A stretch of DNA of 64,000 bases. It comes from Verrucomicrobiota bacterium (GTDB lineage: Bacteria > Verrucomicrobiota > Kiritimatiellia > JAAZAB01). The notes beneath the pieces are model-generated. The model saw only the letters and a program-made list of their open reading frames with translations, searched no databases and was not told the origin of the DNA. The position numbers were made by a program, and so were the translations under genes. The DNA lies in NCBI GenBank assembly GCA_043814705.1, contig JBDRJR010000122.1, positions 9,295-73,294 of the forward strand, written 5' to 3'. Shown in pieces: positions 6,474 through 60,074 of this stretch. Positions within the stretch are counted from its first letter, which is position 1. Each line of letters starts with the position of its first letter.

Positions 6474-7316
6474 GTGTTTAACGAATCAGAAATGCATGGT
6501 ATTGGAATGGATTACACCGAAATTCCATTAGGCGCAAATAATGACAAACGGTCAAATGCCGGCGCAATAACACGGGCACAGATTCTATGCCTGGCCAAGG
6601 GATTTGCGCATATTTTCTGGGGTATGTTTCTTATGCTCGGCCTGTTCCTTAGTCAGGCGGGACTGGAATTTTTTCATGGCATTCGCATCCCCGCCTATGT
6701 GTTGGGCGCCGGACTCATCGGCTGGGGATTGTGGTTATTGCGGTCGGCCGTCCCTGCAAAACGGAACTGGCAGAGACACACCCGGACGGCATTGGGACTG
6801 GCATTGCTGATCATATATTTCGCCCCGTTTATCGCCTGGTGGCAAGCCATGCCTTACGAGAATTTATTTCTGGTCAATGTTCTTGGTCTGCTCCTGACCG
6901 GCATGGGAATCCTTATGCTGGTTAATCTGCTGGCCGCCGAAACATTCAGCCTGTTTGAGGAATCGGGCGGCCGGATTGAATCCCAGGTTTTTGCGTTTGG
7001 CGTCGTTATCCTGATGATTGCGCCTTTCCTGATTGGTCTTTTGTTTGCGCTGGTGGCATCCATGCGTTATAATACAATTTTTGCCGAGGAAATCTGGATG
7101 ACGATTTACCGCATCCCCGTCTGGCTTTACGTGGCAACCACCTTGCCGTGTTCCCTGACCATGGTGGCCGCGTGGAAAGCCAAGGCTATCTGTTATCAAC
7201 GTCTGTGGAACAGCGGGGCAAAGCCCGACAACAGACGACAGACGACGGACGACAGACCAGAAAAGAATGAGGAAGAAGTAAACGTCGAACGCTCAACGTC
7301 CAACTCCCAACTTTAA
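6474..7316 (+). CDS. Hypothetical polytopic membrane protein with a repeat-derived hydrophilic C-terminal tail
   Basis: About 6 predicted TM helices. The last ~28 codons (PDNRRQTTDDRPEKNEEEVNVERSTSNSQL) are encoded by the GACGAC/AACGYYS heptamer repeat block. Confidence 0.45.
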   Translation: MFNESEMHGIGMDYTEIPLGANNDKRSNAGAITRAQILCLAKGFAHIFWGMFLMLGLFLSQAGLEFFHGIRIPAYVLGAGLIGWGLWLLRSAVPAKRNWQRHTRTALGLALLIIYFAPFIAWWQAMPYENLFLVNVLGLLLTGMGILMLVNLLAAETFSLFEESGGRIESQVFAFGVVILMIAPFLIGLLFALVASMRYNTIFAEEIWMTIYRIPVWLYVATTLPCSLTMVAAWKAKAICYQRLWNSGAKPDNRRQTTDDRPEKNEEEVNVERSTSNSQL

Positions 7317-7538
7317 AATGGAAGGGGAGACAACGCAACAGAACCAGACATGATTTTAACCTTAACCGCCAAAAACTGTTAAGAAAAACAAGAAGACATA
7401 GGGTTTTGCCCGCGAAACACGGACGCGAAAAAATCTTGGCTTGAACAATCAATGTATGCGATCAGGAATGGGTGGCATGTTGGCGTTGCTTTTACGATCA
7501 CTGACAACAACTCACATGGGTTACGGGCATAGCCCGCA

Positions 7539-8510: not shown

Positions 8511-8539
8511 AAACAAGATTAGGGAGCCGTGCGCAGCTT

Positions 8540-8643
8540 GAAATTTGAAATTCGAAATTAGGGCAAGAAATGAGTGCGTCAACCGGTTCATTAACAGCAC
8601 AAAAGCATGCAGGCCGAATATCTAATTTCCAGTTTCCAATTTC
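8540..8643. repeat. MITE-like element: 22-nt terminal inverted repeats made of GAAATTN heptamers flanking a ~60-nt core (copy 1)
   Basis: Left arm gaaatttgaaattcgaaattag and right arm ctaatttccagtttccaatttc are inverted. Homologous copies lie at 16288-16417 and 58605-58698. Confidence 0.65.
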
Positions 8644-9775
8644 ATCATGTCCCGGCGTCTCACGGCGTGAGTTTCTGGGTTGCATAGGAACGGGTGTGGC
8701 CGGTTGTGTTTTGGCTGACACACTGATTGGTGCAACACCGCTTGGTGCGGCGCAGGACGGCGCCGAACTGCACGAAGCCTCGTTTTATGAACAGTTGGCC
8801 GGCGGCAAGATCCGTTGCAAGCTGTGCCCGCGCGGGTGCGTGGTCGGTGACAAGCAACGCGGCTATTGCCGCGTCCGCGAAAACCGCGGTGGACGCTACT
8901 ATTCGCTGGTCTATGGCCGACCCTGCGCCCTGCACACCGACCCGATTGAAAAAAAACCGTTTTTTCATGTGTATCCGGGCAGTAAGGCTTTTTCCATTGC
9001 CACGGTGGGATGCAACATCGCCTGCAAGTTCTGTCAAAACTGGGACATTTCGCAAGCCAGTCCCGACGATATCCAGCCGCCATATCAATCCCCTGCGACA
9101 ATCGCACAACGGGCGGTGGAGTCCGGCGCGCGCACGCTTGCCTATACTTACACTGAACCCACCATCTTTTTTGAATACATGGCCGATTGCGCCAGGGCCG
9201 GCAAGGCGCGCGGCATCGAGAGCGTCGTGGTCAGTAACGGCTTTATTTCCGCGGAGGCCCAGCAGGCGCTGTTCCCACTGGTCAAGGCCATCAAAATTGA
9301 TTTCAAGGCATTCACATCGTCTTTCTACCGGGACATCTGCGACGGATTCATTGAGCCGGTGCAAGCCTCCCTCCGGCGCATGGCAAAGTCCGGCGTATGG
9401 TTCGAAATCGTTGTCCTCATCATTCCAACCCTGAATGACAGCTCCGACGAAATCAAGCGCATGGCGGCCTGGATCGTAAAGGACCTGAGTCCGGACGTGC
9501 CGCTCCATTTTTCCAGATATCATCCGATGTTCAAAATGAAAAATATCCCCCCCACCCCGCCCGACACCCTGCGGCGCGCGCGCCAGATTGCGCTGGCTGA
9601 AGGATGTCGCTTTGTCTATATCGGCAACGTGCCCGGCGAGGAAGCCCAGAATACCGTCTGCCCACACTGCCAGGCCATGTTGATTCGCCGTTATAATTAT
9701 CGTATCCTGGAAAATAATATCGTCAAAAGCGCCTGCAAGGCCTGCGGCAAGACGATTCCGGGCGTGTGGGAATGA
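8570..9775 (+). CDS. Radical SAM enzyme of the PflA-like / AmmeMemoRadiSam-type family with a twin-arginine (Tat) signal peptide
   Basis: Tat motif SRREFLGCIGTGVAG. N-terminal Cys cluster CKLCPRGCVV..GYC, the DPIEKKPFFH motif, and the radical-SAM CNIACKFCQN motif. The start is uncertain because the 5' end overlaps the MITE-like repeat. Confidence 0.8.
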   Translation: MSASTGSLTAQKHAGRISNFQFPISSCPGVSRREFLGCIGTGVAGCVLADTLIGATPLGAAQDGAELHEASFYEQLAGGKIRCKLCPRGCVVGDKQRGYCRVRENRGGRYYSLVYGRPCALHTDPIEKKPFFHVYPGSKAFSIATVGCNIACKFCQNWDISQASPDDIQPPYQSPATIAQRAVESGARTLAYTYTEPTIFFEYMADCARAGKARGIESVVVSNGFISAEAQQALFPLVKAIKIDFKAFTSSFYRDICDGFIEPVQASLRRMAKSGVWFEIVVLIIPTLNDSSDEIKRMAAWIVKDLSPDVPLHFSRYHPMFKMKNIPPTPPDTLRRARQIALAEGCRFVYIGNVPGEEAQNTVCPHCQAMLIRRYNYRILENNIVKSACKACGKTIPGVWE

Positions 9776-14878: not shown

Positions 14879-16278
14879 AATTCCAGATCCTCAAGCATGT
14901 TTTTGACACGATTGACAAAGCGCGCGGCACAAGCGCCATCCACCAGGCGGTGGTCGGACGAGAGCGTAATATTCATCATTGCGCGGATTTCGATTTTGCC
15001 GCCCCTGACCACGGGCATCGAACGAATGCTGGCCACCGCCAGGATCGCGCTTTCACCGGGGTTGATGATGGCCGTAAAATGATCCACGTTGAGCATGCCC
15101 ATGTTCGACACGGTAAAGGTGCTACCGGTCATTTCATCCGGGGTCAGCTTGCCATCGCGCGCCTTAAGGGCCAGACTGGCGGCACGTTCATGCAGTTCGG
15201 CAATCGAAAGATCGTGGGCATTACGAATTACCGGAACCACCAAGCCCTCGGCAATTGAAACCGCCAGGCCGAGATGCACACCACTATGCCAGCGGGTGGT
15301 GCGCCCATCAGTCGAACTATTAAGCGCCGGGAACTCCACAAGCGCCAAGGCAACAGCCTTGAGAATAAAATCGTTAACTGAAAACGGTTTTCCGGCCTTT
15401 TTCAGAATTTTACGCCATTCCAGCAGATCGGTCATATCCACCGCAACGGTCACATAGAAATGCGGTGTCGTCGTGAAGCTCATGGTTAACCGCTGGGCGA
15501 TGACCTGCCGTATCTTGCTCATTATCACGGGCTTTTCGGCAATCGCCCGCTGAATCATCGCCACCGTAATGCGTTCCCTGTTTTCGTCCGCAGGCATGGT
15601 TAAAATATCTATGCCATTCTCGCGCGCCAGGTTCTTGGCGGTCGGCGTGATTTTAAGATCGGCATAGTGTTTCGCTTCAAGGTAGGTCCGGACGTCCTTT
15701 TCCACCACGCGTCCACCGGGACCGGTGCCGGGAATAGGATCGGCGCTGATGGCGCATTCGCGGACCATCCGCCGGGCACGCGGAGATATGGATGCACGTG
15801 GCCTGCCCTCCGTAGCCACGATCAAAGCGGGAGCGTAGGAGGGAGCGTTAAGCGTGGAGCGTGGAGCGGGCCCTGGCACACCCGCCGCAGGCTGAACGGA
15901 AGCGGCAGGCGCTGGTCGCAGAGCGGCGGCGGTCAGAGCGATCGCGGGTTCCGCGGCGGGCGCGGACCGGACTATCGGCTTCACTTCGGGAATCGGTTCG
16001 CCCGGTTGGCCGATAAAGGCCACGGGCACCGCGACCGGCACGGTCTGGCCTTCGGCCACGACAATTTTCAAGAGTGTGCCTTCAAAAAAACTTTCGATTT
16101 CGAGAACGGCCTTGTCCGTTTCGATTTCAAACAAAATTTCGCCCTTTTTTACCAGATCGCCTTCGCGTTTGTGCCACTTGACAATCGTGGATTCCTCCAC
16201 AGTCTGTCCGAGTTTCGGCATGATGACTGTTTGAGCCATGGACAAGGTGCTTCCGTTAGAATAAAATTTTATAGCCAT
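14860..16278 (-). CDS. Dihydrolipoamide acyltransferase (E2) with a single lipoyl domain
   Basis: Lipoyl-lysine motif ETDKA, an Ala/Pro-rich linker, the subunit-binding domain, and the catalytic DHRLVDG motif. The true start is probably MAQTVIMPKLG (~16239). Confidence 0.85.
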   Translation of the reverse strand: MAIKFYSNGSTLSMAQTVIMPKLGQTVEESTIVKWHKREGDLVKKGEILFEIETDKAVLEIESFFEGTLLKIVVAEGQTVPVAVPVAFIGQPGEPIPEVKPIVRSAPAAEPAIALTAAALRPAPAASVQPAAGVPGPAPRSTLNAPSYAPALIVATEGRPRASISPRARRMVRECAISADPIPGTGPGGRVVEKDVRTYLEAKHYADLKITPTAKNLARENGIDILTMPADENRERITVAMIQRAIAEKPVIMSKIRQVIAQRLTMSFTTTPHFYVTVAVDMTDLLEWRKILKKAGKPFSVNDFILKAVALALVEFPALNSSTDGRTTRWHSGVHLGLAVSIAEGLVVPVIRNAHDLSIAELHERAASLALKARDGKLTPDEMTGSTFTVSNMGMLNVDHFTAIINPGESAILAVASIRSMPVVRGGKIEIRAMMNITLSSDHRLVDGACAARFVNRVKNMLEDLELWKSMI

Positions 16279-16287
16279 TCACGGCTT

Positions 16288-16417
16288 GAAATTGGAAATC
16301 AGAAATTGGTGCAACAACGGAATCTCGCCTCTGTAAAATGCGTTTCGTTATTTTAATTCGGTTTGTTTGCATCAACAGCATAAGAACATGAAGTCCGAAT
16401 TTCCAATTTCTAATATC
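16288..16417. repeat. MITE-like element, copy 2 (GAAATTGGAAAT inverted arms) in the spacer between the E2 and E1 genes
   Basis: Left arm gaaattggaaatcagaaattgg, right arm gaatttccaatttctaatatc. A 7-bp hairpin agcgttc/gaacgct follows. Confidence 0.6.
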
Positions 16418-16433
16418 AGCGTTCCTTGAACGC

Positions 16434-18749
16434 TCACAAAATCTTTTTCGCCGCCGCCACGATGTCATGGGCATTGGGCAGGAAGGCCGCTTCCAGGATA
16501 TGCGATTGCGGCGCGATGCCGTCCCGGGCGCCGACCCGCAGGACCGGAGCATCCAGGTCATCAAACGCCTGCGCCATGATGTTGGACGCGATTTCACCGG
16601 TAAAACTGCCAATGCTTACCGCCTGGCTGGCGACCACGCATCGTCCGGTCTTGCGGACCGACTGCAATACGGTCTCCATGTCCAACGGAACCAGACTGCG
16701 CAGATCAATTACTTCGGCGCTGACTTTTTCTTCATCATAAAGAATTTTAGCCGCCTTGAGGGCGTCATGCACGGCCGGGCCCCAGGCCACGAGGGTGATG
16801 TCCGATCCCTCGCGTTTGATATCGGCCACACCCAGCGGCACGAGGCATTCGGTTTCAGGCACGGGACCCTTCAAGCCGTAGAGCAGTTGGGATTCGATAA
16901 ACATGATCGGATTGTTGTCGCGGATAGCCGTTTTCAGCATGCCCTTGGCGTCAAACGGCGTGGCCGGATAGACAACATACAGGCCTGGAATATGGACAAA
17001 CATGGACTCCAGCGTCTGCGAGTGCTGGCCGCCGTAGCCCTTGCCACCGCCAACCGAGGCACGAATAACCAGCGCGATTTCCACGTTGGCACCGGACATG
17101 TAATGCCACTTGGCGGCTTGATTGCTGATCTGGTCGGAGGCCATCAGGGCAAAGTCCATGTACATCAGTTCCACGACCGGCCGCAAGCCCGCCATGGAAG
17201 CGCCCACCGCCGTGCCGCAAATGGCGGCTTCCGAGATCGGCGTGTTAAATATGCGCTCACGGCCAAACGCCTCCAGCAGGCCCTTGGTCACCTTGAAGGC
17301 GCCGCCGTAATCAGCCACATCTTCCCCGTAATGGATGACGCGATTGTCACGAAGCATTTCCTCAATCAGCGCCTCCTTGATGGCATCCTTGTAGGTAATT
17401 TCGCCGTTAACCCGCTTGATAACCGGTAATTCCTTGATGATTTTCGTTTGGCGGGCCGACGTCGGCACCACCGCGCAGGTAGTGTCCGTGTACATATATT
17501 TGATGACATCTTCCGGCAAGGGATCGGGCGCGGCCGCCGCGCGCTGGGCGGCGCGCGCATTGCGCTCGCGCACTTTCTGCTCCAAGGCGGCCAAGGTATC
17601 CTTGTTCAAAACTCCGGCCTCCACCAGTTGGCGCGAGAAGACAGCGATGGGATCCAGCGCCTTCCAGGCCGTTTCCTCATCCTTGGCACGGTATTCCGTG
17701 CGCGGATCAGTCAGCGAATGGCCGTAATAGCGGTAGGTATTGAGTTCAACAAGATAGGGTCCCTGGCCTTGGCGACAACCGGCGGCGGCGCGCCCAATGG
17801 CATCGCGCACGGCCAGCACATCCATGCCGTTGACGACCTCCGCATGCATGTTGTTGTCGGCAAAGCCCGCGGCGCGGCGCGCCAGGAGGGCAACACCGGT
17901 GACTTCCTTGAGCGCGCGGCCGGTCATGCCATAGTGGTTGTTCTGGATAACGAAAATGATCGGCAGGCCAAAGGAGTGCTTGGTGATGTCATTGGTATAC
18001 TGGCCCATGGCCGCCCAGTTCAGGGATTCCAGCACAACACCGTTGGCGTAAGCGCCGTCACCCGCAAAACAGCAGACCACGCGTTGGTTCTGCAGATAAC
18101 GACAGGCCATGGCCGCGCCAGTGGCGATCGGCACACCGCCTCCCACAATCGCGTTGGCGCCCAGGTGATTCAAAGTGAAGTCGGCAATGTGCATACCGCC
18201 GCCGCGCCCTTTACAATAGCCGCTTTCCTTGCCGAAAAGCTCGGCAATAGTCCTGAAAACATGGTCTTCAATGACCGCCTCCATGAGATCATCACGCTGG
18301 ACGGCAGAAGAACAGTCCGCCTTGCCCGAGCCGGCCAGGGGCACGCGCCGGCGAAGCGCTGTATCGTCCATGGCACGCAGGGCAACACAGCCCTTGGCAA
18401 TACTGTCGCCGTGGCCGCGATGCGTACTGGTGATATAATCCGCGCCTTGCAGACCAGAGCACGCGCCGGCGGAAGAAGCTTCCTGACCGATGGAAACGTG
18501 GGTCGGCCCACGGTAATTAAAATTCGGCAGTGGCTCGTACGCGCCGGAACGGAGCTTGACGATCATTTCCTCAAACTCGCGGATCGTCAACATGTCCTCC
18601 AGAAGCTGAAGCGCCTGGGTACGATCCAAATGCCCGGCGGCCAATTCCGCGGACAGGTCGCCCTTGAACTGATAACACGCAATGGCGCCGCATTGAACAA
18701 GCGCGGCGGTAAAGTCCGGCTTGAGATTACTTAAATAAGTAGTAGGCAT
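16434..18749 (-). CDS. 2-oxo-acid (pyruvate/branched-chain) dehydrogenase E1 component with alpha and beta subunits fused in one 771-aa polypeptide
   Basis: The N-terminal half has the TPP-binding alpha signature (GDGAYANGVV, HRGHG). The C-terminal half is a beta subunit (transketolase-like Pyr and C-terminal domains). Confidence 0.85.
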   Translation of the reverse strand: MPTTYLSNLKPDFTAALVQCGAIACYQFKGDLSAELAAGHLDRTQALQLLEDMLTIREFEEMIVKLRSGAYEPLPNFNYRGPTHVSIGQEASSAGACSGLQGADYITSTHRGHGDSIAKGCVALRAMDDTALRRRVPLAGSGKADCSSAVQRDDLMEAVIEDHVFRTIAELFGKESGYCKGRGGGMHIADFTLNHLGANAIVGGGVPIATGAAMACRYLQNQRVVCCFAGDGAYANGVVLESLNWAAMGQYTNDITKHSFGLPIIFVIQNNHYGMTGRALKEVTGVALLARRAAGFADNNMHAEVVNGMDVLAVRDAIGRAAAGCRQGQGPYLVELNTYRYYGHSLTDPRTEYRAKDEETAWKALDPIAVFSRQLVEAGVLNKDTLAALEQKVRERNARAAQRAAAAPDPLPEDVIKYMYTDTTCAVVPTSARQTKIIKELPVIKRVNGEITYKDAIKEALIEEMLRDNRVIHYGEDVADYGGAFKVTKGLLEAFGRERIFNTPISEAAICGTAVGASMAGLRPVVELMYMDFALMASDQISNQAAKWHYMSGANVEIALVIRASVGGGKGYGGQHSQTLESMFVHIPGLYVVYPATPFDAKGMLKTAIRDNNPIMFIESQLLYGLKGPVPETECLVPLGVADIKREGSDITLVAWGPAVHDALKAAKILYDEEKVSAEVIDLRSLVPLDMETVLQSVRKTGRCVVASQAVSIGSFTGEIASNIMAQAFDDLDAPVLRVGARDGIAPQSHILEAAFLPNAHDIVAAAKKIL

Positions 18750-25778: not shown

Positions 25779-26040
25779 GGCGCTACGGTAAAAGCAACCT
25801 GATTGATGGGGTTGTCATTAGCAACACTGGCCCACGGATGCGATAGGCGCGCGCCGGTGATGCGTGACGTTCTAACTCGCGGCAGGGTGGCACACCTTCT
25901 GTTTGCCGCCGACATATTGGATTTATTGATAGCAAAGCGACCGGCACTTGTTTTCGCTCCCATCCACCGACACTCGCCCGTTGCACCATAATAAAATGTT
26001 GCCGATGCAACATGGACGAGATGCAGGCCGTTGCCGGCAT

Positions 26041-26078
26041 GTAACAGTTAGCTTCACGATCGTGAAGCTAACTGTTAC
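26041..26078. promoter_or_regulatory. 38-nt perfect palindrome (17-bp arms, 4-nt centre atcg) between the upstream gene and trpS
   Basis: gtaacagttagcttcacg atcg cgtgaagctaactgttac is an exact inverted repeat. It is followed at 26088-26112 by a short GC hairpin plus a T7 run, which looks like an intrinsic terminator. Confidence 0.6.
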
Positions 26079-26208
26079 ATAACCACCGCCCGTTGAGCGG
26101 CTGTTTTTTTCTTTGAATCCAGCCTCAGATTTCACTATGCTTCCCTTTTGTGCAAGCGATCAAGGAAGCGGCCACGCGGAGCGCTCAGGCGCAGAGGACA
26201 AAAACACA

Positions 26209-27171
26209 ATGAGAGCATTATCCGGCATTCAACCTTCCGGGAAACTGCATATCGGCAATTATTTCGGCATGATGAAGCCCGCTTTGGAACTTCAGGAAAA
26301 AGGCGAGGCCTTTTTGTTCATCGCCAATTATCACGCCCTGACTTCAATCGCCGAAGCCGAAGCCCTGCGCACGCTCACGCGGGACGTAGCCCTCGACTTC
26401 CTGGCCTGCGGCCTCGATCCCGAGCGCACGGTGTTTTACCGTCAGAGCGATGTCCCCGAAGTCCATGAGCTTGCCTGGCTGTTGTCCATTGTCACACCCC
26501 TGGGACTTCTGGAACGCTGTCATTCCTACAAGGACAAGGTGGCCAAGGGCGTCCCGGCCAACCACGGGCTTTTTGCTTACCCGGTCCTGATGGCCGCGGA
26601 CATCCTGGCCGTCCAGGCTGACGTCGTCCCCGTCGGCCAGGATCAGAAACAGCACGTCGAGGTCACGCGCGACATTGCCATCAAGTTCAACCAGAAATTC
26701 GGCGAAACATTCAAGATCCCATCCCCGATGATTCGCGCAGGCGTGGCCGTGGTCCCCGGCCTGGACGGCCAGAAAATGTCGAAATCCTACAACAACACGA
26801 TTGAACTGTTCGCGTCCCAGGCGGAGACGCGCAAGGCCATTATGCGCATCGTGACCGACAGCAAAACCGTCACAGACCCGAAGGACCCCGCGACCTGCAA
26901 CGTATTTGCGCTCTACAAGCTGTTTGCGACCGAGCCAGAGCGCGCGGCCATGGCAACGCGCTACCGCGCCGGCGGCCTGGGTTACGGGGAAGTCAAAAAA
27001 GCGCTGTTTGAAAAATTCTGGGCCGTGTTCGAGCCATTCCGGCGCCGGCGAGAAGAACTGCAGAAGGACCCGGATCAGGTCGAGCGGATTCTCCAGCACG
27101 GTGCGGCGCGGGCCCGGGAAGAACTTAGCAAGACCTTAAAGGCCGCCCGCCGGGCCGCGGGGCTGGAGTAA
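26209..27171 (+). CDS. trpS: Tryptophan--tRNA ligase
   Basis: Class I HIGN and KMSKS motifs. The protein is TrpRS-sized (~320 aa) and has the GIQPSGKLHIGNY N-terminus. Confidence 0.9.
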   Translation: MRALSGIQPSGKLHIGNYFGMMKPALELQEKGEAFLFIANYHALTSIAEAEALRTLTRDVALDFLACGLDPERTVFYRQSDVPEVHELAWLLSIVTPLGLLERCHSYKDKVAKGVPANHGLFAYPVLMAADILAVQADVVPVGQDQKQHVEVTRDIAIKFNQKFGETFKIPSPMIRAGVAVVPGLDGQKMSKSYNNTIELFASQAETRKAIMRIVTDSKTVTDPKDPATCNVFALYKLFATEPERAAMATRYRAGGLGYGEVKKALFEKFWAVFEPFRRRREELQKDPDQVERILQHGAARAREELSKTLKAARRAAGLE

Positions 27172-27600
27172 ATGAAGAATGCAGAATGAAGAATGTAGAA
27201 TTAAGAATCCTGTGCCTTATCCACCAAAACCCGCTATAAAAAAATAAGAAAAGAAACCGGAACATTGCCCGCTAAACACTAGCCAAACGTATTTGAAATT
27301 TTCAGACCAAGGGAGGGCGGGCATGTTGCCCGCCGAGCCGGACGGCGACACGCCATCCCTCCTTTTATATTTAGCGTTAGAGTTCTGCAAAATAGCAAGA
27401 AAGCCGGTCATAGACCGGTGCTACACATTCGAATGTTATGCGCAAGTGCAATGTATTGAAATGCTTACGGTGTAGCAACGCTCTGCGAGCGGTGTCTTCA
27501 ATGCCTGTTTTGCATAACTCTAATTTAGCGTAATTTCGCGTGTTTAGCGGGTAAATTCTTTGGGTCGCGCGGGCTCGGCCCGCATTGGGATAAACGCAAC

Positions 27601-28341
27601 ATGCCGATTCAGGAAGAATACAAGGTCAAGCTGGAAGTGTTCGAGGGTCCGCTGGACCTCCTGCTCTACCTCATCAAAAAGGACGAGGTGGACATCTATG
27701 ACATTCCCATCGAGCTGATCGCGCGCCAGTACATGGAATACCTTGGCCTGATGCGGATGCTGGATCTCGACATTGCCGGCGAGTTCCTCGTGATGGCCGC
27801 CACGCTCATGATGATCAAGAGCCGCATGCTCCTGCCGCCGGAAGAGCGGCCCGCGCTGGAGGCCGAGGAGGAAGACCCGCGCTGGGAACTCATCCGCCAG
27901 TTGATCGAGTATAAGAAATTCAAAGATGCCGCGGCCAACCTGCAGGAAATGGAATCTTTGGCGGGCAACATGTTCCTGCGCAGTGCGGAGGATCCGGTGG
28001 TTGTGGTGGAACAGCCGGGCGTCGGGCTGGAGGACGTCACCATTTTCGACCTGATTGCGTCCTTTAACGAGGCGCTCAAGCGGATCCAGGTGAATGAAAT
28101 CGGCGAAATCATGGCCGAGCGCTTCACGGTGGCCGACGGCATCGAGTCCATCTTGGGGCGCATTAAGCGCGAAACACAAGTAATTTTTGCCACCCTGTTC
28201 CAGCCGCTCAGCACGCGCCATGAAATTATCATAACCTTCCTGGCACTGCTGGAGTTAATTCGCCTGCGCCAGGTGGTGGCCCGGCAAGAGGCGGTGTTCG
28301 GCGATATTGTAATCATGCGGCCGGAGGTTGAGGGAGGATAA
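27601..28341 (+). CDS. scpA: Segregation and condensation protein A (kleisin)
   Basis: N-terminal FEGPLDLLLYLIKKDEVDIYDIPI signature. Confidence 0.85.
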   Translation: MPIQEEYKVKLEVFEGPLDLLLYLIKKDEVDIYDIPIELIARQYMEYLGLMRMLDLDIAGEFLVMAATLMMIKSRMLLPPEERPALEAEEEDPRWELIRQLIEYKKFKDAAANLQEMESLAGNMFLRSAEDPVVVVEQPGVGLEDVTIFDLIASFNEALKRIQVNEIGEIMAERFTVADGIESILGRIKRETQVIFATLFQPLSTRHEIIITFLALLELIRLRQVVARQEAVFGDIVIMRPEVEGG

Positions 28342-28487
28342 GGGGCAAAGGCACAAAGGAGCAGAGGGACAAAGGGGCAGAGAAATCGAGCGAATGCTCA
28401 GCAGTTTGATACGCAAATTAAACAGCAAGAGGCCGGACTGAGCTTTGTGCCTCTCGATCGCTCTGTGCCTTTGCCCCTTTGTGCCTG
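28340..28487. repeat. Imperfect inverted repeat (~19-bp arms, about 100 bp apart) made of RRCAAAGG octamer tandem units, in the scpA-scpB spacer
   Basis: aggggcaaaggcacaaagg ... ctctgtgcctttgcccctt. The arms are reverse complements. Confidence 0.6.
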
Positions 28488-30547: not shown

Positions 30548-30668
30548 CGACGGACGGCAGATGACGGACGGTAGCCCGGAAAACGGAAAAAGCAAACGTC
30601 GAACGCTCAACGCTGAACGCCCAACGTCCAATGGAAAACGAAGAACGAAGAACCAAGAACAAGGAACG
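30541..30668. repeat. Composite heptamer-repeat block (GACGRCG x4, AACGYYS x5, GAACNAA x5) beginning at the pheA stop codon
   Basis: gactgacgacggacggcagatgacggacgg ... aaacgtcgaacgctcaacgctgaacgcccaacgtcc ... gaacgaagaacgaagaaccaagaacaaggaacg. This is near-identical to the block at 7230-7310. Confidence 0.8.
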
Positions 30669-38014: not shown

Positions 38015-40747
38015 TCAACGATTTTCTAACGGTTCCACACGGTAATCCGATTCATTCAGATCAACCCGCAGGCCTTGTCCTGGGGTCAAACCAATCCACG
38101 CGACGCCATCCGTATCATTGTTCCCCGGCATTACCGCGCCTGGTTCCACACACCGGATGCGCCAGATGGCGGGCATGCCCGCCGGGTTACGGCACGCAAA
38201 CGTAACCATGTCGGCGTCATCCTGCCCAAGCATGGCCTTGTCCCAGCGCGTAGAGTGTGAAGTGTGAAGCGTGGAGCGTGTTTCCGACACATCCTGTCTG
38301 TTCCACTCTATTTTCAGAACGGTTTCACCGCGCCGGACAATAAACTTGTTGGAGGCGGCTTGATATTGCCAAGCCATATTGCCGCGCCATGCGCCCTGCC
38401 CTTCACTGGCAAGGAGCTGGATCGGAATGCCGCGCTCGCGCGCCACAGTAAGCACCTGCCGGAAAACAGGCGAACGCGCATTGGTCGTTACGCACCAAAG
38501 TTCTTTGACGCGAAAAGCGGCCAATATATCCAGCGCACCACCGGCATGACGCTCGTCCGCCGCCGGCAAAACCAACACGGACAGCTGGTTAACGCCCTGC
38601 CGTTGCAGTTTTTGCACCACACGCCGTCCGGAAAACCGCGATCCGGCATGAACCAGCATATGGGCCGTGCCCGGTGCCTTGATCCGGCAAATGGGTATAC
38701 CACTGATATTGGTTATATCGGCGGATACCCGGTTCCAGTCCGGAATCATACTACCGAGCAAGGCGGCAACCAATAGAGCGGGCCCCGCCAGGCGGATGCT
38801 CCACCGCCGCCATCCATGCTTGATGTCACAGTCCGGATACTGGGCACGGCCCGGCAACCAGGCCAGGAGCGTTCCAAACCAGACAAGCACTGCCCAGATC
38901 GAAGGCGAGGCGACAAAGAAATGACCCCCTGGAATCCGGGCCATGCCATCGGTGATGCAGATCAAAAATGAAACCAGCACTACGTTGGTAAAGTTAAACA
39001 CTTCGCCCAGCCACGGCAAACAGGTTCCAAACAGGATTGAGAAAAAACCGGCTAACAAAACAAAAGCACTGACGGGAATGATTATTAAATTGGCCAGCAA
39101 GGCTATCGGCGAAAATAAGTTGAACCAGCGGGCAATAAGCGGCGTCGAAACGGCCCAAGCCGCCAGGGATGAGACCATCAACAGCGTAACAAAGCGTTGT
39201 GCACTGCGCCGGAATTGGACAACGGGGCGTTCCGGCTCCAATCGCCAGGGGTCCGGCGCCAGCCATGGTTCCAGCAATTTCAGCATGGGCGGGCAGAAAA
39301 CAATCAGGCCGGCCACCACCCCGAACGAAAGCAGAAATCCGTAATCAAACAATTGAAAAGGGTCCACGGCCAGAATCAGGATGGCCGCCAGCGCCATGGC
39401 CGAGGGCAAATCGGGTTTACGGCAAAGCAGGGGCCCGAGGAAAACCAGGAGCGCCATCAAACAGCCGCGCACGGCGCTGGAACTTAACCCCGTGGAAAGC
39501 GTAAAGGCGATTAACACCGGCGCCACATATAGAAACCATTTCACCCGGCACACCCGCTGGGACTGGAGCACCACGATGATGAACAAGGCCAGGATGGCGA
39601 CGTGCTGGCCGGAAATGGCGAAAATGTGATAGGTTCCCGTGGCAATAAAATCGCGGCGGATTTTGTCCGGCAATTCCTGACGATAGCCCAACAACAACGC
39701 CTGCAAGAGGCCCACGACTTCGGGACGATGTTCAATCCCACGTGCCAGATAATTTCCGGCCTTCCGCCGCCCCTGGAAACACCAGGCCATGAGCCGTGCG
39801 CCCTGCCCCTCGGCCAGACAAACACCGGTTGACGGATCCGCGGCAAAGGAATACCTGTTTTTAATCCATTCCCCGACGGGACGTGAAGCTCCCCGCGGTC
39901 CGGCCGTTGCCGGACGGGGCAGCCTACTCCACCGTAGTCCGGCACTGCCGGACGAAGGCTGGATCTTTGCGGAACCCTCCGAAGCTCGTTCCGAAGCATC
40001 AGCGCGAGCAAAGGAGGGCTCATTCGGGAAACGAGCGTTATCCACAAGGACACCGGCAAAGCGCCAGCGTTCGCCATAATGCGGAAACTTTTTCCCCGGG
40101 ATATCGCGCAAACTGATCTGAACCGTGCCACGCGCCTTCTGCCAGGACGGCAGGCGCCGGATCGCTTCCACGCGCAAAGGGAAACTCCACGTGCGCCTGG
40201 TTCCATCCCACGTCACCCTCATAAACGGATCATCCGTGATAACCCCGGATAGCTCCACCCCTTCGCGCGGCTGATCCATTAACGCCGCCAACTCGCGGCC
40301 GGATGGATTATGCAGATATAACGCCACATTCAGCCAAGCGGTCAACAAAACCGCCAGGTATAAGCAAAACAGGCTGAGGGCAGGCAGAAGACGGACTGAG
40401 GATAGGTTGTAGACCGTGGGCTGTGGGCTGTGGGCTGGCGGAACCGAAAGCGGCAAATGCCGCACCGCCCAATACGCCGCCCAACTACCCGCCACCGATA
40501 TAACCAGCGCTGACACCGCCGTCAGAAAAAGAATGCGCGGCGCAAGCGCGGGGACAAAAATACCACCAACAATGCCAAGGATACAGCATGCGGTCAGGCC
40601 CAACAGCGGGCGGCGCAGAATGGGCTGATTGGGGCATTGCACGGGCATACCGACATGATAACGCACACAACATGGAAAACCAAGACCAGAGCCAATATGG
40701 TCGGACACGCAGACAAAACACGTAGCCGATATCAGCGGTGCCCACAA
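38015..40747 (-). CDS. comEC: DNA internalization competence protein ComEC/Rec2 (competence domain plus C-terminal metallo-beta-lactamase domain)
   Basis: Polytopic membrane core with a DUF4131-like N-terminus, a competence domain, and a C-terminal MBL fold (HAGSRFSGRRVV...ADERHAGG). The N-terminal extent is uncertain (910 aa as called). Confidence 0.8.
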   Translation of the reverse strand: MWAPLISATCFVCVSDHIGSGLGFPCCVRYHVGMPVQCPNQPILRRPLLGLTACCILGIVGGIFVPALAPRILFLTAVSALVISVAGSWAAYWAVRHLPLSVPPAHSPQPTVYNLSSVRLLPALSLFCLYLAVLLTAWLNVALYLHNPSGRELAALMDQPREGVELSGVITDDPFMRVTWDGTRRTWSFPLRVEAIRRLPSWQKARGTVQISLRDIPGKKFPHYGERWRFAGVLVDNARFPNEPSFARADASERASEGSAKIQPSSGSAGLRWSRLPRPATAGPRGASRPVGEWIKNRYSFAADPSTGVCLAEGQGARLMAWCFQGRRKAGNYLARGIEHRPEVVGLLQALLLGYRQELPDKIRRDFIATGTYHIFAISGQHVAILALFIIVVLQSQRVCRVKWFLYVAPVLIAFTLSTGLSSSAVRGCLMALLVFLGPLLCRKPDLPSAMALAAILILAVDPFQLFDYGFLLSFGVVAGLIVFCPPMLKLLEPWLAPDPWRLEPERPVVQFRRSAQRFVTLLMVSSLAAWAVSTPLIARWFNLFSPIALLANLIIIPVSAFVLLAGFFSILFGTCLPWLGEVFNFTNVVLVSFLICITDGMARIPGGHFFVASPSIWAVLVWFGTLLAWLPGRAQYPDCDIKHGWRRWSIRLAGPALLVAALLGSMIPDWNRVSADITNISGIPICRIKAPGTAHMLVHAGSRFSGRRVVQKLQRQGVNQLSVLVLPAADERHAGGALDILAAFRVKELWCVTTNARSPVFRQVLTVARERGIPIQLLASEGQGAWRGNMAWQYQAASNKFIVRRGETVLKIEWNRQDVSETRSTLHTSHSTRWDKAMLGQDDADMVTFACRNPAGMPAIWRIRCVEPGAVMPGNNDTDGVAWIGLTPGQGLRVDLNESDYRVEPLENR

Positions 40748-52012: not shown

Positions 52013-52113
52013 AGGTCAGAGATCAGAAGTCAGAGGTCAGAGGGCGGAGGGCGGAGGACAGAATAAAAAATGTGCAGGAGCCGATCCCCAATCGGCGATA
52101 AGCGAGGCAACCC

Positions 52114-57757: not shown

Positions 57758-58282
57758 ATGATTAATCCCGTCTTTTTCATCGTGTTGCTGTTCCTCCTCC
57801 TGCTGATGGGGATCGCAACGGTTATGACGCTTGATCTGCTGAAGTCGGCCATAGGACTGGCCGTGACCAGCGCAATCCTGTCGTTTCTGTTGTTCCGCAT
57901 GGACGCGCCCCTGGCCGGCGTTTTCGAGCTTTCCGTCTGTGCCGGCCTGATTATTGTCGTATTCATTAATGTCATCAGTTTGACCAAGCCGCTGACGGAC
58001 GCCGCCGCGCGCGCGCGCGACCGTAGCCGGGTCAGGCGCTTCATTTGCCTGCCGATCCTGATCGTCATTCTGGGCGGGATCTTGTATATTCTGCGCCCGC
58101 AGATGGATCTGCCCTTGCCGCCGTCCAGCGTCGTAACGGATGCGCGCGAGATGCTTTGGAATGTCAGGCGGATGGATCTCGTCGGCCAGATTCTAATTAT
58201 CCTGGCCGGTGTGTTTGGCGTCGTGATCCTGTTCAAGGAACGGCCCGATATCAAGGGACCGCGGGGGGAGGGTAATTCATGA
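57758..58282 (+). CDS. MnhB/MrpB-like small membrane subunit
   Basis: 174 aa with 4-5 TM helices and MrpB-domain-like organisation. Its stop overlaps the next start (ATGA). Confidence 0.6.
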   Translation: MINPVFFIVLLFLLLLMGIATVMTLDLLKSAIGLAVTSAILSFLLFRMDAPLAGVFELSVCAGLIIVVFINVISLTKPLTDAAARARDRSRVRRFICLPILIVILGGILYILRPQMDLPLPPSSVVTDAREMLWNVRRMDLVGQILIILAGVFGVVILFKERPDIKGPRGEGNS

Positions 58283-58599
58283 TAGCCCATGCGCAAACGC
58301 TGTTCGCCGCAGGTGTAATTTTCATAATACTGCTGGCGGTCACGGCGCTTTATTGCATCCTTATCAGCCGCAACCTGATCCGCATGCTGATCGGCCTGGA
58401 ACTGCTGGTCAAGGCCGTCACACTGCTGATCGCTCTGGCCGGTTATCTCGGCGGCCACATGGCGCTGGCGCAGACCATGATCATTACGATGATCGTGATC
58501 GAGGTCGTGGTCATCGCCGTGGCGGCCGGCATTGTCATCGGCGCCCACCGCCACAACCATTCGCTGGATGTCAGGACACTGAGGAACCTGAGGGGATAG
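58279..58599 (+). CDS. NuoK/MrpC-like 3-TM subunit
   Basis: 106 aa, three TM helices, and a LIGLELL-type motif (MLIGLELLVKAVTLL). Confidence 0.7.
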   Translation: MIAHAQTLFAAGVIFIILLAVTALYCILISRNLIRMLIGLELLVKAVTLLIALAGYLGGHMALAQTMIITMIVIEVVVIAVAAGIVIGAHRHNHSLDVRTLRNLRG

Positions 58600-58604
58600 A
58601 GCAA

Positions 58605-58698
58605 GAAATTTGTAATTCGAAATTTGGAAGAGAGACAAAACATGGCTATGCATTCAAAACGCGCGAAGACGAATATCTAATTTCCAATTTCTAATTTC
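58605..58698. repeat. MITE-like element, copy 3 (GAAATTN inverted arms) inserted between two hydrogenase membrane-subunit genes
   Basis: Left arm gaaatttgtaattcgaaatttgg, right arm ctaatttccaatttctaatttc. It fills the whole 113-nt spacer between the 58599 stop and the 58713 start. Confidence 0.65.
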
Positions 58699-58712
58699 AA
58701 AGGATTCGATCT

Positions 58713-59048
58713 ATGGATAACTGGCTGTTATGGACGCCGTTCACATTTTTGCTGATTCTCTTCACGACGCTGATTTTGTTGAGGGGCTTGGCTTTGTTTT
58801 CATCAACTTCCAGGGGCGCCGTCCCGGGGGGCAAGCTCAAACCCTATGCCTGCGGCGAGGATATGCGGGAAAACCGGGGCCAGCCGGATTACAGCCAGTT
58901 TTTCCCGTTCGCGGTTTTTTTCACCATCATGCACGTGCTCGCGCTCGTGGTGACGACCGTTCCCGTGCACGATTGGCCGGCCGTTGAAATCGCCATGGGA
59001 TATTGGATTTGTTCCTCCATCGGATTGTTCATTCTGTTCCGGAGATAG
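58713..59048 (+). CDS. NuoA-like small membrane subunit
   Basis: KLKPYACGE matches the NuoA/ND3 KxxPYECG motif, followed by a hydrophobic FxxFxxVA-like helix. Confidence 0.55.
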   Translation: MDNWLLWTPFTFLLILFTTLILLRGLALFSSTSRGAVPGGKLKPYACGEDMRENRGQPDYSQFFPFAVFFTIMHVLALVVTTVPVHDWPAVEIAMGYWICSSIGLFILFRR

Positions 59049-59114
59049 GTTTTCTGGAAGAAATGGTTAATGGCTAATGGTTGATGGTCAATGTTATTCA
59101 GGAGACAGGCATCC

Positions 59115-60016: not shown

Positions 60017-60074
60017 ATTTGAAATCCGGTGTTTCGAATTTCGTGCTTCAATTTTAGATTAAAAAGGGACGGCC

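Follow-up and report, generated by a model that had tools for sequence, protein, structure and literature searches.

We asked what the three short inverted-repeat elements are that lie between genes of a 64,000-nucleotide stretch of a Verrucomicrobiota genome (the window), and how they came to sit in its operon spacers. The initial annotation had placed them at 8540-8643, 16288-16417 and 58605-58698 (copies 1, 2 and 3) and had offered two readings: MITE-like insertions that leave the operons intact, or hairpins acting in RNA processing or stability. All three elements are present at these positions, and each has the arms of about 22 nt that had been described, made of three GAAATTN heptamers in inverted orientation. 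The left arms, (GAAATTN)x3, are found at 8540-8560, 16288-16308 and 58605-58625, and the right arms, (NAATTTC)x3, at 8623-8643, 16397-16417 and 58678-58698; a repeat search returned the arms of copy 1 as 23 nt with 87% complementarity. All features of the copies and their flanks are given on the plus strand.

The arm motif GAAATTNGAAATT, taken at up to two mismatches, has 22 matches in the window as compared with 9.4 +/- 3.6 in shuffled sequences, and none of 100 shuffles reached 22. Fourteen of the 15 matches with no or one mismatch fall into the three loci. The elements extend further than the arms: copies 1 and 2 continue outward of the arms with about 17-20 nt of additional terminal inverted repeat, and the full extents are approximately 8523-8663, 16271-16437 and 58600-58709. 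With sizes of about 110-167 nt, the copies contain no complete coding sequence, and of a gene they retain only a start region and the final 7-8 codons. A fourth place, the NuoC-like/NuoD-like spacer at 60017-60060 (no strand assigned), had been listed as a degenerate relic. We do not count it as a member of the family, since it has a single arm match with two mismatches, a weak fold (-7.9 kcal/mol, z = -0.87) and no nhmmer match at E <= 0.01. At least one further family of a similar kind, with different arms, is found at 28340-28487. Furthermore, the window contains 15 runs of period 7, mostly intergenic and often directly upstream of start codons, while shuffled sequences contain 0.1.

The origin of the elements is indicated by full-length parents of about 440-465 bp that were recovered from metagenomes (L205, 161-625; L211, approximately 1458-1897; L215, 956-1407). 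They share one layout. Behind an outer terminus, which is GTAGCCGTTCACGG or GTAAGCG..., come GAAATTN heptamers (three to four), a ribosome-binding site (GGGAGAG), the ATG of a gene of 117-118 aa, three to four NAATTTC heptamers and again an outer terminus. The sole gene of the cassette encodes a 117-aa four-helix-bundle protein (4HB; PF05635/TIGR02436; S23p, "23S rRNA intervening-sequence protein"); the cassette proteins match TIGR02436 with E = 3e-24, have the PF05635 domain and match PDB 2GSC, the Xanthomonas S23p. When L205 alone was used as an nhmmer query, it matched copies 1 and 2 in the same orientation, including the 3' end of the gene. The last 23 nt of the 4HB gene are found in the window only in copies 1 and 2, with 0.00 occurrences expected by chance. 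We therefore regard the window elements, with a probability of about 0.8, as non-autonomous, internally deleted MITE relics of this mobile 4HB cassette. The arms do enclose a core, as had been annotated; the core, which had been called variable, holds conserved remnants of the gene. Readings of the conserved core by eye as a sigma-54 promoter or an IHF site were dropped, as the core is a gene end.

Between the full-length parents and the window copies there is a series of deletions. The proteins come in lengths of 117, 84 (P0129) and 71 aa (P0213). At the DNA level we see frameshifted copies of about 280 nt, at least four of them in one Thermodesulfobacteriota MAG (L087, L108), a copy of about 250 nt in a Bacteroidota MAG (L031) and miniatures of 60-190 nt (L033, L043, L103). 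In total, the cassette family is spread over at least six bacterial phyla. Each full-length cassette was recovered in one genomic context, and occupancy of several sites in one genome was seen for truncated copies only. A scan of genome contigs with GAAATTNGAAATTNGAAATT gave about 10 true relatives among the 120 loci listed; most of the listed matches are heptamer arrays of AT-rich genomes and are unrelated. In the plasmid and viral collections, neither the cassette nor its terminus had a match. Heptamer arms are absent around one distant 4HB gene, on a plasmid of Pseudanabaena, which shows that some 4HB genes lie outside such cassettes.

Copy 1 (8523-8663) matches L205 with E = 1.3e-6 at its 3' end and E = 0.026 at its 5' end (nhmmer). 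It begins with the outer left terminus GGAGCCGTGCGCAGCTT, continues through the left arm to a ribosome-binding site and an ATG at 8570, and ends, after the right arm, with a degenerate terminus (..CTCAC). The remnant of the 3' end of the 4HB gene, ATTAACAGCACAAAAGCATGCAG at 8590-8612, differs from the L205 gene end at two positions (chance expectation 0.00) and encodes ..FINSTKA, the exact C-terminus of the 4HB subfamily, whose proteins end in ..NAFINSTKA; the stop codon TGA is mutated to TGC. In agreement with the annotation, in which copy 1 supplies the first 25 or so codons of a radical-SAM ORF, we find that the element lies upstream of this ORF (AmmeMemoRadiSam, 8570-9775) and runs into it, and that 26 codons, 8570-8647, are inside the element and form an N-terminal extension. 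Homologues of about 375 aa start some 10 residues before the SRR(E/K)FLG Tat motif, and the ORF in the window has about 20 N-terminal residues more; it has no alternative in-frame start. The enzyme does seem to start inside the element. In L224, which has a radical-SAM gene that is 85% identical, there is no element upstream.

Copy 2 (16271-16437) is the most complete miniature. As annotated, it sits in the spacer separating the E1 gene from the E2 gene, here of a 2-oxoacid dehydrogenase, and it is antisense to the E1-E2 operon. Its outer termini, ATAGCCATTCACGGCTT on the left and AGCGTTCCTTGAACGCTCAC on the right, are inverted like the arms, as are those of the full-length relatives. The similarity to L205 is supported both by nhmmer (E = 5.6e-9) and by blastn (85% identity over 62 nt), and the gene-end remnant ATCAACAGCATAAGAACATGAAG at 16371-16393 (..CINSIRT and a stop codon) has three mismatches, again with 0.00 expected by chance. 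The stop codon of E1 (16434-16436) is within the last bases of the element. The start of E2 is over-called into copy 2, and its annotation needs to be read again.

If the elements were inserted, duplications of the target may be visible, and a search for them had been proposed with the initial annotation. Perfect target-site duplications of 8 bp flank four independent relatives, GATAATCT (L205), AAAAAACT (L211), GAAAATCA (L215) and AAAAAATA (L031). Copy 2 is flanked by a putative 8-bp duplication, AAAATTTT at 16263-16270 and AAAATCTT at 16438-16445, with 7/8 positions identical. No duplication is recognisable in the flanks of copy 1, nor for L087 and L103, and none was found for copy 3, the flanks of which contain only the suggestive pair GGGGATAG / AAGGATTC.

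Inverted repeats of the IS66 family (20-30 bp) start with GTAAGCG, and the family has direct repeats of 8 bp (PMC11946415), the length that we see in four perfect cases and one with 7/8. The termini of L103 and L043 start with GTAAGCGTTCACAG and GTAAGCGTCCACAG, that is, with GTAAGCG, and in its first 10 nt the L043 terminus equals the ISPsk01 inverted repeat, GTAAGCGTCCGGCG.. (PMC12888890). Termini close to GTAAGCG are found in L031 and L211; the forms seen outside L103 and L043 include GTAAGCT, GTAAGTG and GTAGCCG. L205, L215, MAG132 and the window copies, on the other hand, have GTAGCCG/ATAGCC and not GTAAGCG; the terminus of the window lineage is GTAGCC/ATAGCC. There is no transposase of any family in the 64-kb window or adjoining any recovered copy, so the IS66 assignment is made from the termini and the duplication length only. 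Judging by these two features, the mobilising enzyme would most likely be an IS66-family transposase acting in trans.

Copy 3 (58600-58709) is the most eroded and lacks both outer termini. As annotated, it fills the spacer between the NuoK-like (58279-58599) and NuoA-like (58713-59048) genes, here of a group-4 [NiFe]-hydrogenase/Mrp-type cluster. Its left arm reads GAAATTT GTAATTC GAAATTT and its right arm TAATTTC CAATTTC TAATTTC; the right arm with its flanking bases is identical at 23/23 positions to the right arm of L211 (blastn, E = 3.7e-7). Outside the arms, the match to the full-length element is not significant (nhmmer, E = 0.36). A stretch of 17 nt in the core, CGAATATCTAATTTCCA, is identical to copy 1, and membership in the family is based on this identity together with the arms. 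The core also contains a mini-ORF, MAMHSKRAKTNI with a stop codon (58642-58680), preceded by GGAAGAGAG; both are likely a residue of the ribosome-binding site, the start codon and the gene end of the cassette.

That copy 3 is an insertion follows from the related operons. The spacer between the K and A genes is at most 19 nt long in 44/56 of them, and it measures 3 nt in the close relative L129. The empty site in L129 is GGATAG|TCT|ATG, where the window has GGATAG, 110 nt and then TCT ATG. By NuoD-like identities, the window is an outgroup and the empty-site L129 falls among occupied genomes, a pattern that favours independent insertions or a loss. A different element is found in the K-A spacer of L121 and L124, and homology of the window element to it was not demonstrable. 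Relatives also carry further inverted-repeat elements of the heptamer type between NuoD and NuoH, a spacer of 5 nt in the window, and a TAATGGT array in the NuoA-NuoB spacer of the window is shared with L121.

The suggested role in RNA processing or stability predicts that the elements are kept as functional hairpins, as an RNase III site or as a stabilising stem that lets the genes before and after it be expressed independently of each other. The arms do pair with each other in every fold, the elements are without a terminator, and elements of a similar style occupy several spacers of the hydrogenase operon in relatives. The Coxiella intervening sequence is alike as well: it has a repeat stem, heptamers upstream of the S23p ATG and an RNase III cut at the first heptamer (PMC4990558). 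The folds themselves, however, are not exceptional. Copy 3 (-13.7 kcal/mol, z = -0.05) is no more stable than its shuffles, and copies 1 and 2 reach z = -1.7 and -1.5. The stems are blocks of 6 bp interrupted by mismatches; the N positions pair at 0/3 in copy 3 and at 15/32 across the family, where 37.5% is expected by chance, and there is no compensatory pattern. Rfam, run on the whole window at the gathering score, gave 0 matches. Since the K-A spacer is short in most related operons, the close relative included, the operon does not need the element. We found the hairpin role unsupported for these reasons, and consider it unlikely that it explains the elements. The elements may nevertheless have a side effect at the RNA level, because the related intervening sequences of rRNA are cut out by RNase III.

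The 6-nt cores of the heptamers pair at 185/192 positions as compared with 15/32 for the N positions, a pattern more in keeping with repeated protein-binding sites than with a helix under selection. Such sites could also be cis-regulatory, with proteins controlling translation or transcription and with the inversion reflecting symmetric binding; in a variant of this explanation, the binding protein is the 4HB protein, with the heptamers as its cognate sites. The much better conservation of the 6-nt cores is what one would expect here, and the excess of period-7 runs, often just before starts, and the conservation of the TAATGGT array with L121 point the same way. Heptamer arrays of varied sequence are found upstream of 4HB genes in unrelated loci and in Coxiella, and translational control has been argued for TAACTGA repeats before start codons in Beggiatoaceae (MacGregor 2015, PMC4679880). 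Regulation, however, does not account for the remnants of a gene inside the cores, for the outer termini, for flanking duplications of 8 bp or for empty orthologous sites. Moreover, copy 2 is antisense to its operon while copies 1 and 3 are sense, and no candidate regulator was identified. We judge a regulatory origin to be quite improbable.

Potentially, the elements could also have formed at their present sites through slippage during replication and fold-back of heptamer repeats (STRR/LSSR-type), their similarity being convergent. According to Mrazek 2007, cited in PMC4679880, heptamers are the most over-represented class of long simple sequences in many bacteria, and polymerase slippage is proposed; Xanthomonas is known to have heptamer arrays as inverted pairs (PMC4692102), and among the matches listed GAAATTN arrays come from many phyla. 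Slippage does not account for shared sequence that is not repetitive, that is, the 23-nt gene end, the outer termini and the ribosome-binding site with its ATG, nor for the fact that the shared segments match elements of other phyla that bear target-site duplications. The shared non-repeat sequence and the homology to L205 effectively refute such an origin.

Returning to MITE relics of a 4HB cassette, the copies are short and without a complete coding sequence, have terminal inverted repeats and are dispersed, with insertion polymorphism. Insertion into operon spacers without disruption, the first of the two suggested readings, is supported by the homology of the ends, the duplications in relatives, the empty sites, the relatives in other phyla and the lack of a terminator-like site in the elements. 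The copies in the window are fossils, with copy 2 almost intact at either end and copy 1 degraded at its right end.

How might they have moved? The terminal repeats of the cassette are long and composite, with an outer terminus of about 17-20 nt followed by three to four GAAATTN heptamers. Movement, present or past, would have been by DDE-type cut/copy-and-paste with duplication of 8 bp of an A-rich target. An enzyme acting in trans, most likely of the IS66 family, may have recognised these ends, and the heptamers could have been subterminal protein-binding sites. In a genome with 55% G+C, A-rich 8-mers are presumably found mostly at gene junctions, so insertions would fall into operon spacers. 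The duplication could regenerate a stop codon, a ribosome-binding site or a start codon at both junctions. Insertions would be tolerated because the element has no terminator, because the duplication can rebuild junction signals and because the element comes with a ribosome-binding site and an ATG of its own, signals that at copy 1 now probably serve the radical-SAM gene. We infer that the elements have no function for the host.

For the source genome, the result is mostly a matter of housekeeping: three odd inverted repeats can be explained as transposon relics; for its annotation, two ORF starts (E2 and radical-SAM) are to be read again. More generally, the elements suggest how a small cassette can land in tight operons without harm, as it has no terminator and an 8-bp duplication rebuilds the junction signals. 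The full-length parents connect S23p/4HB genes, the as yet unexplained intergenic excess of heptamers and IS66-type ends with 8-bp duplications, which are separate subjects in the papers that we searched. An incomplete literature search found no prior description of 4HB genes with heptamers, MITEs or IS66, and a connection of the genes of rRNA intervening sequences with heptamer repeats and with IS66-like ends seems not to have been described so far. S23p/four-helix-bundle genes have been the enigmatic ORFs of 23S rRNA intervening sequences for 30 years, and their mobility has only been guessed at. It is maybe the case, though we hold this as a tentative idea and think it rather doubtful, that S23p/4HB genes are the cargo of widespread IS66-mobilised cassettes with heptamers as recognition sites. 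The rRNA intervening sequences, the inverted heptamer pairs seen in Xanthomonas and in further bacteria and much of the intergenic heptamer excess would then belong to one transposition system, with the window elements as its eroded footprints. If the link is true, the nature and the movement of intervening sequences become directly testable.

Finally, we compared the elements with known systems. MICs consist of IS-type inverted repeats and a passenger gene without a transposase, for example MIC231 of Bacillus cereus. Like MITEs and MICs, the elements are small, have terminal inverted repeats and, in four relatives and putatively in copy 2, a target duplication, lack a transposase and form a series of internal deletions; they occur in many copies between genes, and a host gene seems to use a start signal supplied by the element. 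Unlike in MITEs and MICs, the repeats are long and composite (an outer terminus and 3-4 tandem heptamers), and the parent is not a deleted IS but has a 4HB gene; no cognate IS was found. With the IS66 family, including "tIS66" with passenger genes, they share the GTAAGCG termini (L103, L043) and, in relatives, the 8-bp duplication; in contrast to that family there is no tnpA, tnpB or tnpC, and the terminus of the window lineage has diverged. We know of no description of heptamer arrays inside IS66 ends.

The RAYT-mobilised REP, BIME and REPIN elements are likewise extragenic, often inside operons, abundant and made of inverted unit pairs around a short core. The outer terminus, GTAG followed by CCGTTCACGG, resembles a REP (5' GTAG and a small palindrome), which had prompted us to consider a REP/RAYT origin. 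A duplication of 8 bp is unexpected for Y1/RAYT chemistry, and such an origin is disfavoured by the 8-bp duplications; besides, the arms are tandem heptamers and not palindromic REPs, and the core is a gene remnant.

The 23S rRNA intervening sequences (Coxiella, Leptospira, Brucella and Xanthomonas-type S23p) have a protein of the same family, PF05635/TIGR02436. In these, too, the gene is bracketed by terminal inverted repeats, tandem heptamers separate the repeat from the ATG, and the ORF shows reductive evolution through internal deletions (PMC4990558). The elements described here, by contrast, are in mRNA spacers of protein-coding operons and not in helix 25 or 45 of 23S rRNA; all copies are between protein-coding genes, and Rfam found no rRNA in the window. 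The heptamer is GAAATTN here and GACAGAT there, and target duplications and IS66-like termini are, to our knowledge, not reported for the rRNA sequences. The last group are heptamer repeats such as the cyanobacterial STRR, TAACTGA of the Beggiatoaceae and the GGGAATC pairs of Xanthomonas, where about 70 convergent (inverted) pairs are reported (PMC4692102). They are alike in being tandem intergenic units of 7 nt, often beside starts. While those repeats have been reported as stand-alone arrays of unknown origin, the heptamers that we describe here belong to the terminal repeats of a defined transposable cassette.

The inverted-repeat elements that the initial annotation had reported at three sites of the window are all present (copies 1, 2 and 3, at approximately 8523-8663, 16271-16437 and 58600-58709). 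In each, two arms, of three GAAATTN heptamers on the left and three NAATTTC heptamers on the right, enclose 52-88 nt of core sequence; for copy 1, a repeat search gave arms of 23 nt that are 87% complementary. With at most two mismatches, the two-heptamer pattern occurs 22 times in the window, compared with 9.4 +/- 3.6 times in shuffled sequences, none of which reached 22, and 14 of the 15 matches with zero or one mismatch lie inside the three copy loci. We do not count the "relic" proposed at 60017-60060 as a family member, given its single two-mismatch match, weak fold and lack of a profile match. Pfam assignments agree with the contexts described for copy 3, in a membrane-bound group-4 [NiFe]-hydrogenase/Mrp-type cluster, where it separates a NuoK-like gene (58279-58599) from a NuoA-like one (58713-59048), and for copy 2, between the 2-oxoacid dehydrogenase E1 and E2 genes on the minus strand; copy 1 enters a radical-SAM ORF. 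The NuoD-like protein has a 100% identical NCBI entry from a Verrucomicrobiota MAG, and its nearest relatives come from Kiritimatiellia MAGs (82-86% identity). The window carries ordinary housekeeping genes, and as a genome feature the elements are ordinary too. We were not able to find a transposase in the 64 kb, or any Rfam match in the whole window.

We give a probability of about 80% to the explanation that the window elements are MITE relics of a cassette carrying a four-helix-bundle (4HB, or S23p) gene. They are fossils, to be classed as a MITE or mobile insertion cassette. The MITE reading was already part of the initial annotation and is now borne out by gene-end remnants, a parent cassette, target duplications of related elements and empty sites; what is new is that the parent cassette has been identified. 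When genome contigs were scanned for three perfect heptamers, the matches listed were mostly unrelated arrays, with a few loci that had common sequence beyond the arms. In a Thermodesulfobacteriota MAG with at least four element copies (L087, L108), the same arms come after a small hairpin (AGCCGTTCACGGCT) and surround some 190 nt of a frameshifted gene that has the motif SIAANIAEGYGRY. Used as a protein query, this fragment led to 117-aa "four helix bundle proteins" with PF05635, which match TIGR02436 and the solved Xanthomonas S23p structure 2GSC and have the C-terminus ..KLGPKLNAFINSTKA. The core of copy 1 reads TTC ATT AAC AGC ACA AAA GCA TGC (FINSTKA, then a mutated stop codon), and that of copy 2 translates to ..CINSIRT and a stop. 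Within the window, the final 23 nt of the gene in a full-length cassette (L205) are confined to copies 1 (2 mismatches) and 2 (3 mismatches), with 0.00 expected by chance, and nhmmer queried with the L205 element alone detected copy 2 (E = 5.6e-9) and copy 1 (E = 1.3e-6) in the same orientation. In the alignments the 5' ends run as terminus, arms, ribosome-binding site and ATG, and the 3' ends as gene end, arms and terminus. The cores, described earlier as variable, do vary in length, but they are not merely variable, since copies 1 and 2 keep the 4HB gene end. Copy 3 is the most eroded of the three: a gene end can no longer be recognised in it, and the outer termini are gone. Its right arm and flanking bases are identical to those of cassette L211 at 23/23 positions, and it has 17 nt beyond the arm in common with copy 1.

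The full-length cassettes (L205, 161-625; L211, about 1458-1897; L215, 956-1407) share one order: an outer terminus (GTAGCCGTTCACGGCT or GTAAGTGTTCAC..), three to four GAAATTN heptamers, GGGAGAG, an ATG with 117-118 codons, three to four NAATTTC heptamers and the inverted outer terminus (..CCGTGAACGGTTAC). The check for target-site duplications suggested at the outset gave perfect 8-bp direct repeats around all three, namely GATAATCT, AAAAAACT and GAAAATCA, respectively. In a Bacteroidota MAG (L031), AAAAAATA lies on both sides of a deletion derivative of about 250 nt, and copy 2 has AAAATTTT on one side and AAAATCTT on the other, identical at 7 of 8 positions. Other miniatures come from a Nitrospirae MAG and from MAGs whose only label is "bacterium" (L103, L043, L033), and there are in-frame shortened 4HB proteins of 84 aa and 71 aa. 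Together, these complete a series of deletions that leads from the gene-bearing cassette down to the gene-less miniature, the defining mark of MITEs.

As for the enzyme, the signature given for the IS66 family is an inverted repeat starting with GTAAGCG plus an 8-bp direct repeat (PMC11946415), and an active member has GTRACT termini and an 8-bp repeat (PMC12898284). Two of the three miniatures start with GTAAGCG, and the first ten bases of the L043 terminus are those of a quoted IS66 repeat, GTAAGCGTCCGGCG.. (PMC12888890); the terminus in the lineage of the window has drifted to GTAGCC/ATAGCC. From these termini and the 8-bp repeat we infer, tentatively and at less than even odds, that an IS66-family transposase may have mobilised the elements in trans; no gene for one was seen. 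The GTAG-plus-palindrome terminus had also suggested a REP/RAYT origin, against which the target duplications speak.

The elements are insertions and not ancestral structure. In 55 related operons and the window, the NuoK-like/NuoA-like spacer is at most 19 nt in 44 of 56 cases (gene starts are approximate in 8 of these 44). A relative whose NuoK-like protein is 81% identical (L129) has the element-free junction GGATAG TCT ATG, and in the window this junction is split between TAG and TCT by 110 nt. Likewise, no element lies upstream of an 85%-identical radical-SAM gene (L224). Two other closely related lineages (the L121 group and L124) have a different heptamer inverted-repeat element in the NuoK-like/NuoA-like spacer and another in the NuoD-NuoH spacer, which is only 5 nt in the window. 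By its NuoD-like identities the window falls outside the L121/L124/L129 group; independent insertions, or gain then loss, are needed. The elements of these relatives (L121, 3233-3416, 4311-4443, 7227-7357 and 12478-12657; L124, 4487-4599 and 7227-7348) have TCAGAAT-type and AAATTCC-type arms and occupy several spacers of the hydrogenase/Mrp cluster, some of them empty in the window.

The insertions have also touched gene ends. Radical-SAM homologues (AmmeMemoRadiSam type) are about 375 aa long and start about 10 residues ahead of an SRR(E/K)FLG motif. At that position the window ORF lacks an in-frame start, and it begins at copy 1's own ATG (8570); its first 26 codons (8570-8647) come from the element, close to the 25 or so proposed before, so that the ORF exceeds its homologues by about 20 residues. 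The mechanically called E2 ORF starts at 16278, inside the left terminus of copy 2. Its lipoyl domain starts at residue 17, and translation therefore probably begins at the ATG at 16239 (MAQTVIMPKLGQT...); the call extends 13 codons too far, into the element. The last bases of copy 2 contain the E1 stop codon, and no terminator-like site is present in copy 2 or copy 3. Insertion sparing tightly coupled genes is illustrated by L215 (940-960, 1395-1416), where the cassette sits on an ATGA stop/start overlap of CheR-like and metallo-beta-lactamase-fold genes: the 8-bp duplication preserves the upstream stop codon, and a C-to-T change of the element's last base rebuilds the downstream ATG.

It is possible that the elements have a side effect on RNA processing in these operon transcripts. 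There is a precedent in the Coxiella 23S intervening sequence, which has a 28-bp terminal stem, carries three heptamers in tandem ahead of the S23p ATG and is cut by RNase III at the first heptamer (PMC4990558). Folding, proposed earlier as a check, pairs the arms in every predicted structure, but does not indicate unusual stability: the energies are ordinary for copy 3 (-13.7 kcal/mol, z = -0.05) as well as for copies 1 and 2 (z = -1.7 and -1.5). Moreover, in 11 family members the 6-nt cores of the heptamers are complementary at 185/192 positions, whereas the N positions pair in 15/32 cases (37.5% by chance) and in copy 3 in 0/3. This pattern makes the hexamer the conserved unit, as would be expected of repeated protein-binding sites, and not a continuous helix.

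Other repeats were seen as well. An inverted-repeat mini-element in the scpA-scpB spacer (28340-28487; arms of 8-nt period, GGGGCAAA/GGCACAAA...) folds into a hairpin of very high stability (-65 kcal/mol, z = -5.1), and its core mini-ORF, MLSSLIRKLNSKRPD and a stop, resembles the helix at the C-terminus of a different four-helix-bundle subfamily; the element probably represents a second family of such relics. A non-inverted dispersed heptamer-array family is found at 7225-7330 and 30570-30662, with GACGACR-type heptamers followed by AAACGTCGAACGCTCAACG... and 19 nt identical. Period-7 tandem runs of many different heptamers number 15, versus 0.1 in shuffles, and are mostly intergenic (for example, 27171-27201, 38253-28280, 40412-40441, 52022-52062 and 59062-59088). 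The last, a TAATGGT array in the NuoA-like/NuoB-like spacer, is kept in L121, and most other relatives have no such arrays. At three further loci (L059, about 960-1570; L027; L061), 4HB genes of other subfamilies have their own heptamer-like arrays ahead of them, and in L059 the array appears to be translated within the protein (..RPYTSYKSYTTYTTY..). A non-coding stretch, aagaaaagaaaccggNacattNcccgc.aaaca, is common to unrelated intergenic contexts at 27240-27290 and in L124 (12040-12110), and may be another dispersed element, a small RNA or a promoter motif. Finally, a perfect 42-nt palindrome (ATGTAACAGTTAGCTTCACGATCGTGAAGCTAACTGTTACAT, 26039-26080) lies upstream of a Trp/Tyr-tRNA synthetase-like gene (26113-27171).

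In an incomplete coverage of the literature, we found no paper linking heptamer repeats, inverted GGGAATC pairs and S23p intervening sequences, and none describing 4HB cassettes that have both IS66-like ends and target duplications. An excess of heptamer repeats in bacterial genomes was documented by Mrazek 2007, as cited in PMC4679880, which deals with TAACTGA repeats adjoining start codons. About 70 inverted pairs of GGGAATC arrays are described in Xanthomonas, their origin not given (PMC4692102), and S23p intervening sequences have been termed selfish elements, with mobility hypothesised only (PMC4990558). The parent cassette offers a testable route to the origin of both the rRNA intervening sequences and the intergenic heptamer repeats.
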